DNA from: Escherichia coli
GTDB taxonomy: Bacteria; Pseudomonadota; Gammaproteobacteria; Enterobacterales; Enterobacteriaceae
Assembly (NCBI RefSeq): GCF_013122565.1
Contig: NZ_CP053258.1
Reading direction: 5' to 3' (one strand)
Length of the DNA stretch: 64,000 nt
Shown here: positions 19,138-21,660 of the stretch, one piece after another
Numbering within the stretch: position 1 is the stretch's first letter
How the letters are laid out: each line of letters starts with the position of its first letter
Translations under genes and position numbers: made by a program
Notes under the pieces: generated by a model
Seen by the model: only the letters and a program-made list of their open reading frames with translations
Told to the model about the DNA's origin: nothing
Databases searched by the model: none

Positions 19138-19160
19138 GCGCAGTACAGAAAGTACTGCGC
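19138..19160 (-). terminator. Rho-independent terminator downstream of ybaT (stem GCGCAGTAC / GTACTGCGC, 5-nt loop)
   Basis: Perfect 9-bp inverted repeat immediately 3' of the ybaT stop (19172..19174), followed on the minus strand by a U-rich tract (CUUUGUCUUUAAUU). Confidence 0.6.
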
Positions 19161-19171
19161 ACAGAGAGGTG

Positions 19172-20464
19172 TTATACGGCTTTATTGCGCTTCATGACCA
19201 TTGCCACAATAAGGCTGAGTAAGATTGCACCAATAATCCATATCAACGCACGGCTGCCCTGGGACCACAGGCTGTAGATAAAGCCAACGATCACCAACAA
19301 CATCACCAACGTACCTACGATAAGAATCGGCAACGAGGCGTGAATATCATGACGCAGGCGGATCGCCACCACAAACACCGCCAGATAGCAAATCAAAAAG
19401 GTGGCGCTGGCAACGCTGGCGAGTGAGCCTAAATTTAATGCCGCCGTCATCAGCATAATCAACACCACGACAATAATGTTGCCCCAGGTACTCTGCCGCC
19501 ACAGGGATTTATTCATTAGCTTCGGCAGTTCGCGTTCGCTGCCCATGTTGTCCATGATGTTAAACACGGCGAACAGGTTCGCGTTGATGGCTGAAGCCGT
19601 CGCCAGTAAAGCGCCGATGACGACGATCACATAACCCACATGCCCGAGCAGCGGAGAAGCTGCCTGCGCTACGGCGGTATCGGCATATTTTTCTAACTCT
19701 AATGCCGATACATCGCTAAGCAAAACCAGTGCCAGCGAGATATAAAGCAACGTGGTAACGCCAATCGCCACCAGAAACGCCCGTGGCATAATGACCTGCG
19801 GATCTTTCACTTTATCCGCCGCGTTCGCCATCATGCCAAAGCCCGCATAGGCAAGGAAGGTTATCCCGATACAGGAGAAGAACGCACCGGAGCTGGGGGG
19901 CGCAGAGACGGAAATATGCGCCGGTTGCAGCGACCAGACACCGGCAATAATCAGCAATAACAGGATCATCATTTTAATGCCGACGAGGATCACTTCCAGC
20001 CGCCCTACCGCATGGTTGCTTAAGGAGTTGAAAAGCGTCATCACCGCAATGATCCCCAACGCGTAGAGCAAAATAAGGTGCTCCTCCTGGCTGCCTTCAT
20101 GCAAAAACTGCACGGCATAAGCGCCAAAAGCACGGGCGACCATGGCGATGCTCACCGCCAGCGTCAACAGGTACAGTAACGAGAGCGCCAGCGAAAAGAC
20201 GCCGTTGCCTAATCCGCGACGAAAGAAGTCGATAATGCCGCCATTGCTGGGATAGCTCGCCCCCAGACGCGCATAGGCATAACCGGAAAACATCGCCACA
20301 ATACCGCCAAAAGCAAAGGCGACCCAGGTCGAGGCTTCCATTAGCAACGCAGCCTGCCCCAGCAGCGCGAAGATCCCCGCCCCCACCATTGCCCCAATAC
20401 CGATGGAAACGACATTCCATAGACCGAGGGGTTTGTTACCGTTATTACCTTCCGTGTTCATCAT
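19172..20464 (-). CDS. ybaT: APC-family amino acid transporter YbaT
   Basis: 430-aa polytopic membrane protein (MMNTEGNNGNKPLGLWNVVSIGIGAMVGAGIFALLGQ...). Its start is 3 nt after the glsA stop, so the two are translationally coupled. Confidence 0.9.
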   Translation of the reverse strand: MMNTEGNNGNKPLGLWNVVSIGIGAMVGAGIFALLGQAALLMEASTWVAFAFGGIVAMFSGYAYARLGASYPSNGGIIDFFRRGLGNGVFSLALSLLYLLTLAVSIAMVARAFGAYAVQFLHEGSQEEHLILLYALGIIAVMTLFNSLSNHAVGRLEVILVGIKMMILLLLIIAGVWSLQPAHISVSAPPSSGAFFSCIGITFLAYAGFGMMANAADKVKDPQVIMPRAFLVAIGVTTLLYISLALVLLSDVSALELEKYADTAVAQAASPLLGHVGYVIVVIGALLATASAINANLFAVFNIMDNMGSERELPKLMNKSLWRQSTWGNIIVVVLIMLMTAALNLGSLASVASATFLICYLAVFVVAIRLRHDIHASLPILIVGTLVMLLVIVGFIYSLWSQGSRALIWIIGAILLSLIVAMVMKRNKAV

Positions 20465-20466
20465 GA

Positions 20467-21399
20467 TCAGCCCTTAAACACGTTATAGCCGAGTTGCTTA
20501 GCGACCGATGCCACCATTTTTTGACCGCGAACACTGTTGCCTTCTTCGTCCAACGGTGGTGAGAACGCGGCAATTCCCATCACGCCAGGGACGACCGCCA
20601 GAATACCGCCACCTACACCGCTTTTGCCCGGTAAACCAACGCGATACGCCCAGTCACCGGAGCGACCATACAGCCCTTCCATCATCATTTCGGCCAGAAT
20701 GTACGGCACATTGTCGGCCTGAAGAACGCGTTTATGCGTCAGCGGATTCATCCCCCCCGCCGCCAGCGTCGCGCCAAGCGTTGCCAGTTCAACAGTATTG
20801 ATGAGCGTGGAGCACTGACGGGTGTACACGTCACAGGCTTCCATTGCATCACAATAGAGATATCCGGCGGAGTACAGCAGCCAGGCAATGGCCCGGTTAT
20901 GGAAGTTGGTTGTTTGTTCCGACTGGTTGACTTCATCAGAGAGCGCAACCTGCTCACCAGCCAGTTGCTGTTGGATATGTAAAATTCGCTGCCAGCGTTG
21001 TTCGGCATTTTCAGCGTTAATCAGGCTGGTGGTGGCAATAGCGCCAGCATTTACCAGTGGCGAAAGCGGTTTGCCGCCATGCAACTCTAAGGCGATAACT
21101 GAGTTAAAGGGCAATCCGGTCGGGTCAGCGCCAATTTTGTCCTGTACCGCCTGCGGGCCGACATCTTCTAACGCAAGGGCTAACGTACAGACTTTCGAGA
21201 TGGATTCCAGCGCAAAGCGGTAATCACTGTCACCCGCACTATAGACGTTGCCATCGCTGGTCACGATAGCCACTGCTGCCAGTTGACCAGGCACATTCGC
21301 CAGAAAGGGAATGTAATCGGCATTTTGTCCGCCGTTAAGTGAGTGAAATTGGGTGTAAGCCTGATCCACTGCCTGCTGTAATTTGTTTGCATCTAACAT
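20467..21399 (-). CDS. glsA: Glutaminase 1
   Basis: 310-aa ORF, MLDANKLQQAVDQAYTQFHSLNGGQNADYIPFLANVPGQL..., recognised as the serine-dependent glutaminase family (YbaS). Confidence 0.9.
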   Translation of the reverse strand: MLDANKLQQAVDQAYTQFHSLNGGQNADYIPFLANVPGQLAAVAIVTSDGNVYSAGDSDYRFALESISKVCTLALALEDVGPQAVQDKIGADPTGLPFNSVIALELHGGKPLSPLVNAGAIATTSLINAENAEQRWQRILHIQQQLAGEQVALSDEVNQSEQTTNFHNRAIAWLLYSAGYLYCDAMEACDVYTRQCSTLINTVELATLGATLAAGGMNPLTHKRVLQADNVPYILAEMMMEGLYGRSGDWAYRVGLPGKSGVGGGILAVVPGVMGIAAFSPPLDEEGNSVRGQKMVASVAKQLGYNVFKG

Positions 21400-21590
21400 C
21401 TTTTGTTAACTCCTTTTTATAGATGCGGGAGGTAATTCCTCACCCCGGTGCCGATTTTCAGGCATCCTGATTTAACTTAGCACCCGCAACTTAACTACAG
21501 GAAAACAAAGAGATAAATGTCTAATCCTGATGCAAATTGAGCCAATTTTTTAATCTTTACGGACTTTTACCCGCCTGGTTTATTAATTTC

Positions 21591-21621
21591 TTGACCTTCC
21601 CCTTGCAGGAAGGTTTACCCT
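21591..21621 (+). promoter_or_regulatory. copA promoter with CueR (MerR-type) operator: TTGACC -35, 19-bp spacer containing dyad CCTTCC-N7-GGAAGG (21595..21613)
   Basis: The sequence ttgaccttccccttgcaggaaggtttaccct sits about 45 nt upstream of the copA ATG. A perfect 6-bp dyad inside an over-long spacer is the MerR-family hallmark. Confidence 0.75.
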
Positions 21622-21660
21622 TTATCACAGCCAGTCAAAACTGTCTTAAAGGAGTGTTTT

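Follow-up and report, generated by a model that had tools for sequence, protein, structure and literature searches.

The island at the ybaT boundary

We examined a 64,000-nucleotide stretch of Escherichia coli DNA (RefSeq assembly GCF_013122565.1, contig NZ_CP053258.1), referred to below as the window, in which a genomic island lies beside the permease gene ybaT at the position that cueR, the gene for the regulator of the copper exporter gene copA, occupies in K-12. In K-12 W3110 the genes glsA and ybaT, a 98-bp pseudogene remnant and cueR follow one another on one strand with copA divergent, and a preliminary description of the window was thus right to name cueR as the K-12 gene directly after ybaT. 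In the window the hairpin that ends ybaT is followed by tolC28 and a giant adhesin gene, and the island does stand in for cueR beside ybaT, as that description had it. The features of the boundary and the genes on either side of it are as follows.

1-17376, minus strand: siiEA (rtxA28/rtxB28), the 5' 17.4 kb of a giant adhesin gene, a stop-free frame that continues beyond the left edge of the window
17479-18834, minus strand: tolC28, a TolC-family gene of 451 codons (NCBIfam TIGR01844 type_I_sec_TolC, 417.6 bits against a cut-off of 225.15)
18835-19137, minus strand: regulatory spacer of the island, AT-rich and not present in K-12
19138-19160, minus strand: intrinsic terminator hairpin of ybaT (terminator scan and folding)
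19172-20464, minus strand: ybaT, an APC-family permease (open reading frame and the annotation of relatives)
20467-21399, minus strand: glsA (ybaS), glutaminase A (NCBIfam NF009020, 561 bits against a cut-off of 395)

With zero stops over 1-17376, the siiEA frame spans at least 5,792 codons. Its product matches the NCBIfam model adhesin_SiiEA (502.5 bits, cut-off 425), and the N-terminus matches biofilm_BapA_N (71 bits) and Ca_tandemer (681 bits, 8 repeats in the first 1,000 residues). In strains PE164 and O157 the annotation calls the counterpart of tolC28 a TolC-family protein, and for PE164 and O157:H7 86-24 it gives, on the ybaT strand, the TolC-family gene, siiEA ("BapA-related adhesin", ~20 kb), a type I secretion permease/ATPase, an HlyD-family adaptor and cueR. 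The two components whose genes, hlyB28 and hlyD28, lie outside the window also exceed their NCBIfam cut-offs (LssB-type ABC component, 837.3 bits against 693.1; HlyD-type adaptor, 327.7 bits against 208.65). From tolC28 to copA the DNA of the window is 98.6-98.7% identical to that of island-bearing E. coli including O157:H7, and ybaT taken singly is 99.2% identical to O157 and 98.6% to K-12.

Judged by its genes and their sequences, the island beside ybaT is O-island 28 (OI-28) of enterohaemorrhagic E. coli (EHEC) O157:H7, made up of tolC28, siiEA/rtxAB28, hlyB28 and hlyD28. The break in synteny at ybaT is the edge of an already known and published island, real but ordinary. In EDL933 the island comprises z0608 (tolC28), z0609/z0615 (rtxA28/rtxB28), z0634 (hlyB28) and z0635 (hlyD28) (PMC12758282; PMC3893438); it had already appeared in the literature as an EHEC lineage I marker (PMC3893438), and the adhesin gene was named siiEA in UMN026 (PMC3256949). 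Experimental characterisation in 2025 showed that early adherence and colonisation depend on the island: in O157 the regulator RstA binds a box at -294 to -280 from tolC28 and switches on tolC28-siiEA-hlyB28-hlyD28, and TolC28, HlyB28 and HlyD28 export a Ca2+-dependent adhesin of immunoglobulin-like (Ig) repeats that promotes early epithelial attachment (PMC12758282). The same paper makes no mention of cueR or ybaT, and a literature search combining cueR, ybaT and the island returned nothing relevant. The RstA box, TAATTCAAATTACC, is present in the window at 19115-19128 as a single exact match (0 expected by chance), 9 nt from the ybaT hairpin, in the AT-rich spacer that measures 337 bp on the tolC28 side of ybaT.

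The window and OI-28 of EDL933 agree in the position beside ybaT, in gene order, in strand and in an identical RstA box, and they differ in the adhesin gene, which is split in two by a stop in EDL933 and forms one open frame in the window. In O157:H7 86-24 (locus L003, 11160-31319) the in-frame stop falls at about codon 1461 and corresponds to the z0609/z0615 split; the frame of the window is unbroken there. The siiEA DNA of the window and of O157 is 92-95% identical with a different repeat register, and its G+C content is 58-63% as against ~50% in the flanks. A relative (locus L085) has a TolC28 protein identical to that of the window, 96% DNA identity over the shared 16.8 kb and a siiEA product of 6,929 residues. 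PE164 carries an IS4 insertion in siiEA (locus L002, 1566-2894), and siiEA of the window is uninterrupted. OI-28 resembles the Salmonella systems BapA/BapBCD and SiiE/SiiCDF of Salmonella pathogenicity island 4, as well as siiEA of UMN026 (PMC3256949), in the BapA N-terminal prefix, in dozens of Ca2+-stabilised Ig-like tandem repeats and in the TolC-like, LssB-type ABC and HlyD-type adaptor genes that accompany the adhesin. It differs from the Salmonella BapA and SiiE class in its chromosomal locus and in the fusion of its operon to cueR through a 4-nt overlap. The C-terminus of the adhesin, and any secretion signal or RTX nonapeptide block there, would fall past the left edge of the window.

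Position of cueR and a probable deletion scar in K-12-type genomes

A megablast search of window positions 17000-21700 against 5,426 complete E. coli genomes found the whole stretch, and so the ybaT side of the island, in 958; the cueR side is present in 959 of the 5,426, with cueR joined to hlyD28 in all 959; ybaT and cueR are adjacent and the island is absent in about 82% of E. coli. In O157 the ATG of cueR overlaps the stop codon of hlyD28 (ATGA), and the 959 genomes have the two genes joined in this way. The expectation that cueR lies beyond the giant gene therefore holds in the island-bearing genomes, in which cueR directly follows hlyD28, ~25 kb from ybaT. For the genome of the window we infer the same arrangement; scaled from the adhesin length of L085 and the O157 layout, cueR would lie ~7 kb past the left end of the window and ~25 kb from ybaT. 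Neither a 96%-identical relative of the window, GCA_052983875.1, nor the 9.9-kb read-assembly contig of SRR11451224 extends as far as cueR.

Two further observations concern the surroundings of cueR. The cueR DNA of K-12 (locus L001, 3497-3904) is 94.6% identical to that of O157 (L003, 7418-7825), and ybaT across the island site is 98.6% identical; a cueR divergence as great as that between named Escherichia species may reflect haplotypes of long standing, or recombination near the scar. The cueR/ybbJ junction is also variable: K-12 has no spacer there, O157 has ~2.6 kb (L003, 4784-7417) with a YadA-family adhesin and a lipoprotein, and the gap measures 1.3-4.9 kb in most other Escherichia loci (L004-L008) but only ~0.16 kb in L007; many Citrobacter have ~2.9 kb there.

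The island-less E. coli genomes share a pair of break points. Similarity to the window begins at 19144 (BLAST query position 2145) in all sampled genomes but one, and on the cueR side the common break lies 100 nt into hlyD28, again in all sampled genomes but one. Deviant breaks occur in H40 (NZ_CP116948.1) and H80 (NZ_CM143890.1), inside ybaT (window ~19492) and inside cueR, and represent separate events. Position 19144 falls 6 nt within the outer arm of the ybaT hairpin; K-12 lacks those 6 nt, and the endpoint lies between 19143 and 19144. The hairpin is formed by the arms GCGCAGTAC and GTACTGCGC separated by 5 nt, a perfect 9-bp stem with a T-rich tail (folding free energy -16.3 kcal/mol, z -7.3 against shuffles). 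Its K-12 counterpart gives no significant fold (z +0.68) and the terminator scan calls none there, so that a hairpin that is whole in the window and in O157 is destroyed in K-12.

On the other side of the junction, the K-12 spacer between ybaT and cueR is the 3' end of hlyD28, ~100 nt at ~92% identity with a 1-nt deletion that shifts the frame, and is annotated as a pseudogene. The translation of this remnant ends in VLEYLLKPFNKAQEALRER and a stop, the conserved C-terminus of the HlyD family, and the intact HlyD28 tail aligns through the last residue of E. coli HlyD (8dck, ending in SVISYLLSPLEESVTESLHER). Because the tail aligns with the HlyD C-terminus, the remnant is genuine adaptor coding sequence and not a chance extension of an open reading frame. 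The K-12 junction shows ~3 nt of GTA microhomology. Since K-12 holds both a remnant of hlyD28 and a truncated hairpin, the boundary seen at ybaT is the endpoint of a deletion in K-12-type genomes. The start of the island had been placed at 19138, which is correct to within 6 nt; the clean boundary proposed just after the terminator has to be given up, as the endpoint lies inside the outer arm of the hairpin.

Other Escherichia species retain the island to different degrees. The hlyD28-cueR junction is intact in E. whittamii and Escherichia sp. E1V33. In a divergent Escherichia (locus L007, ybaT 88% identical) the island has eroded: pieces of tolC, siiEA and hlyB survive, together with an hlyD whose frame is shifted. 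E. albertii has retained the final 55 nt of hlyD28, which lie at the exact syntenic position (80% identity, E 4e-9), and the central ~115 nt of its ybaT-cueR spacer has no significant similarity to the island. Escherichia sp. MOD1-EC7003 has a K-12-type scar. In that strain only ~500 bp separate copA from ybaT (locus L006, 8089-8583), with no GlsA match at 50% coverage or more, and glsA may have been deleted or degraded. The remnants in K-12, E. albertii and L007 are different. On these sequences the island looks ancestral to Escherichia, apparently fused to cueR before the species diverged and then lost at least three times, and the adjacency of ybaT and cueR in K-12 would be a secondary deletion scar, derived by loss and not by gain.

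We thus read this part of the window as the ybaT-proximal end of OI-28, with cueR unmoved as the next gene after hlyD28 and the difference from K-12 arisen by loss, a reading to which we assign a probability of about 0.88. OI-28 would be a chromosomal operon that encodes a Ca2+-stabilised Ig-repeat adhesin of ~6,900 residues together with its type I secretion system, and its RstA-activated promoter region would start just after the ybaT terminator. The cueR gene would have stayed in place as the gene after hlyD28, its ATG over the hlyD28 stop codon. A single deletion at ~3 nt of GTA microhomology, which removed everything from within the outer hairpin arm to a point ~100 nt short of the hlyD28 terminus, would then have created the ybaT-cueR adjacency of ~82% of E. 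coli.

An opposite history, in which a mobile island inserted into an empty, K-12-like ybaT/cueR site that is a recurrent hot-spot bounded by the ybaT terminator, appears improbable to us. Such an insertion would account for the ~82% of E. coli that have no island and for the atypically high G+C of the giant gene, the copA-cueR interval does vary across genera, and "acquisition" is the word used for OI-28 in PMC12758282. However, the K-12 site is not empty but holds the frameshifted 100-nt 3' fragment of hlyD28 and the truncated hairpin, the remnants in E. albertii and L007 differ, and the E. coli genomes examined have a single type of cargo at ybaT/cueR. The mobility features for which a search had been proposed are also missing: no integrase or transposase is found among the genes of the O157 copy of the island and no tRNA gene in the window, and no direct repeats flank the island, whose junctions have only ~3 nt in common. 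A tRNA- or integrase-type island is rejected on the first two of these counts, and the hot-spot that the preliminary description proposed at ybaT/cueR is contradicted by the remnants together with the missing mobility features.

Less probable still is a displacement of cueR by an inversion, a translocation or an assembly error, with the copA regulon rewired or cueR lost. The 64-kb window does contain no cueR, as this would predict, but the same ybaT junction recurs in 958 complete genomes, cueR is fused to hlyD28 in all 959, and elsewhere in the window K-12 and PE164 are collinear with it. An independent read assembly argues against an assembly error, as the 9.9-kb Logan contig of SRR11451224 is 100% identical to window positions 14396-24269 and spans the ybaT/island junction. 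None of the 5,426 complete genomes exceeds 98.7% identity to the housekeeping DNA at 26000-38000; by this measure the strain is of a lineage that has no close representation among them.

Several points weigh against a history of loss from an ancestral state. The junction shows only a short, imperfect microhomology. The term "ancestral" rests on the remnants in E. albertii and K-12 and not on a tree, and either allele could have been passed on by recombination; the loci compared do not include E. fergusonii, E. marmotae and E. ruysiae. The genes cueR, hlyB28 and hlyD28 lie outside the 64-kb window, and their presence in this genome is taken over from its relatives. The high G+C of siiEA fits an old horizontal origin, in which case there must have been an insertion at an earlier stage.

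The copA operator and the expression of cueR

The promoter that CueR acts on lies on the far side of glsA, and copA is divergent from glsA in the window.

21400-21589, no strand: Escherichia-specific part of the glsA-copA spacer (from comparison with the spacers of Salmonella, Citrobacter, Enterobacter, Klebsiella and Kluyvera)
21590-21621, plus strand: copA promoter and CueR operator (-35 TTGACC at 21591-21596, 19-nt spacer, -10 TACCCT at 21616-21621)
21661-24165, plus strand: copA, a Cu(I)-exporting P-type ATPase (834-residue open reading frame, annotated copA in all relatives)

The CueR dyad CCTTCC-N7-GGAAGG had been reported as perfect within the 19-nt spacer, and we find it there at 21595-21613 (CCTTCCCCTTGCAGGAAGG) and nowhere else in the 64 kb (0 matches expected by chance). 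The promoter is like the CueR-activated copA promoter of K-12 in its -35 element TTGACC, its 19-nt spacer, its dyad and its distance to the copA ATG, and differs from it by two rare substitutions. Both also distinguish the window from O157 and PE164: one at 21608, the last base of the N7 (T to A, CCTTGCT to CCTTGCA), and one at 21618 in the -10 element (TAACCT to TACCCT). An identical 76-nt copA promoter occurs in one of the 5,426 complete E. coli genomes, that of strain ET201 from a frog, which is without the island and has a frameshifted glsA. A link between the rare promoter variant and the island is ruled out, as ET201 has the variant but no island.

CueR is a diffusible regulator of the MerR family and also controls the unlinked gene cueO. 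In K-12 cueR lies ~3 kb from copA, and in island-bearing genomes ~25 kb; because CueR diffuses and also acts on unlinked cueO, this greater distance should not matter. Our analysis thus points the same way as the earlier suggestion of regulation in trans: with its operator intact, copA would still be regulated by CueR in trans, and copper regulation would be undisturbed.

The expression of cueR itself may be tied more closely to the island. In island-bearing strains cueR would be translated from an AGGAGG within hlyD28, and its transcription would start either at the operon promoter, with cueR as the final gene, or at a promoter in the 100 nt that K-12 has retained. A scan of the K-12 ybaT-cueR spacer with the sigma-70 consensus found no promoter-like site. 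Where the ybaT terminator has been lost, as in K-12-type strains, transcription may read through from glsA-ybaT into cueR. In one K-12 transcriptome cueR was up 2.2-fold while ybaS and ybaT were up 9-fold (PMC6064147), and this rise gives weak and indirect support to such read-through. Since the start codon and the ribosome-binding site of cueR, and probably its promoter, lie inside hlyD28, a deletion of OI-28 or of hlyD28 could alter cueR expression unless the 3' end is spared.

The copA-cueR gap across the Enterobacteriaceae

We compared the cueR loci of 80 species representatives, about 75 of them from outside Escherichia. In most of the ~75 non-Escherichia species copA and cueR are divergent neighbours ~108 bp apart, and the core of the CueR operator and promoter is conserved across them. 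A divergent pair of regulator and target is the typical MerR-family arrangement. Outside Escherichia the start codon of cueR lies ~10 nt past the copA -35 element (ending in CCTTCCATCAAGGGGAAGGTCAAGGGGGAAAnnATG), a gap found in Salmonella enterica subsp. arizonae, Citrobacter, Enterobacter, Klebsiella, Kluyvera, Lelliottia and others. The copA/cueR pair of Salmonella, Citrobacter, Enterobacter and Klebsiella resembles that of Escherichia in its operator, its promoter core and the genes on its far side, ybbJ and qmcA. It differs in that cueR starts ~10 nt past the copA -35 element, whereas in Escherichia glsA-ybaT, and OI-28 where present, intervene. Homology of the window to the copA-cueR spacers of other genera ends at 21589/21590, just past CTTGACC, and in Escherichia the cueR ATG is preceded by hlyD28 codons, which include the ribosome-binding site. 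From these two observations it follows that glsA-ybaT and OI-28 occupy the ~10-nt gap. The proposed history would therefore reach back to a stage earlier still, at which glsA-ybaT and the secretion system both entered the ~10-nt gap between the copA -35 element and cueR.

The same gap has been filled in many other lineages with 0.6-8 kb of unrelated cargo (for example argH with Dcu transporters, an MFS transporter, a nucleotidase). In several Citrobacter species (locus L011, 2300-10000; also L017, L024, L028 and L039) it holds a ~7.7-kb heme uptake and utilisation cluster that includes a TonB-dependent heme receptor and a ChuW/HutW radical-SAM enzyme among others, with a strong TATAAT ~35 nt upstream of cueR. 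Several of the non-Escherichia inserts are bracketed by direct repeats of the CueR operator, 22-31 bp long, at the following positions.

L014, 8034-8055 and 9973-9994: operator direct repeats
L040, 5076-5102 and 9966-9992: operator direct repeats
L044, 4057-4087 and 6236-6266: operator direct repeats
L053, 6342-6365, 7511-7534 and 9968-9991: operator direct repeats

In L044 the repeat next to cueR is a complete second promoter resembling that of copA (TTGACC, 19 nt, TAAGTT), and it faces a 3-gene cargo. Pfam scans of this cargo identified a peptidoglycan-binding-domain protein and two LprI-like proteins, and revealed no link to copper.

These loci indicate that an insertion hot spot exists at the family-wide junction of the copA promoter and cueR, and not at ybaT/cueR within E. 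coli. A broader proposal can be made only tentatively, and we think it more doubtful than probable: that the gap between the copA -35 element and cueR is a family-wide recombination hot spot; that the uptake of glsA-ybaT and the secretion system in Escherichia cost cueR its ancestral leader (GGTCAAGGGGGAA), its ribosome-binding site and probably its promoter now coming from hlyD28; and that cueR of K-12-type strains is perhaps partly co-transcribed with the acid-resistance genes glsA-ybaT. If this were true, a second copA-like promoter such as that of L044 could put new genes under copper control.

For E. coli, the main value of these results is to clear the break at ybaT: the island is catalogued and has been studied experimentally, and copper regulation is presumably undisturbed. 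The giant adhesin gene of this strain is unbroken exactly where O157:H7 has its stop codon. Within Escherichia as a whole, OI-28 would be better treated as ancestral and repeatedly lost than as "acquired" by EHEC.

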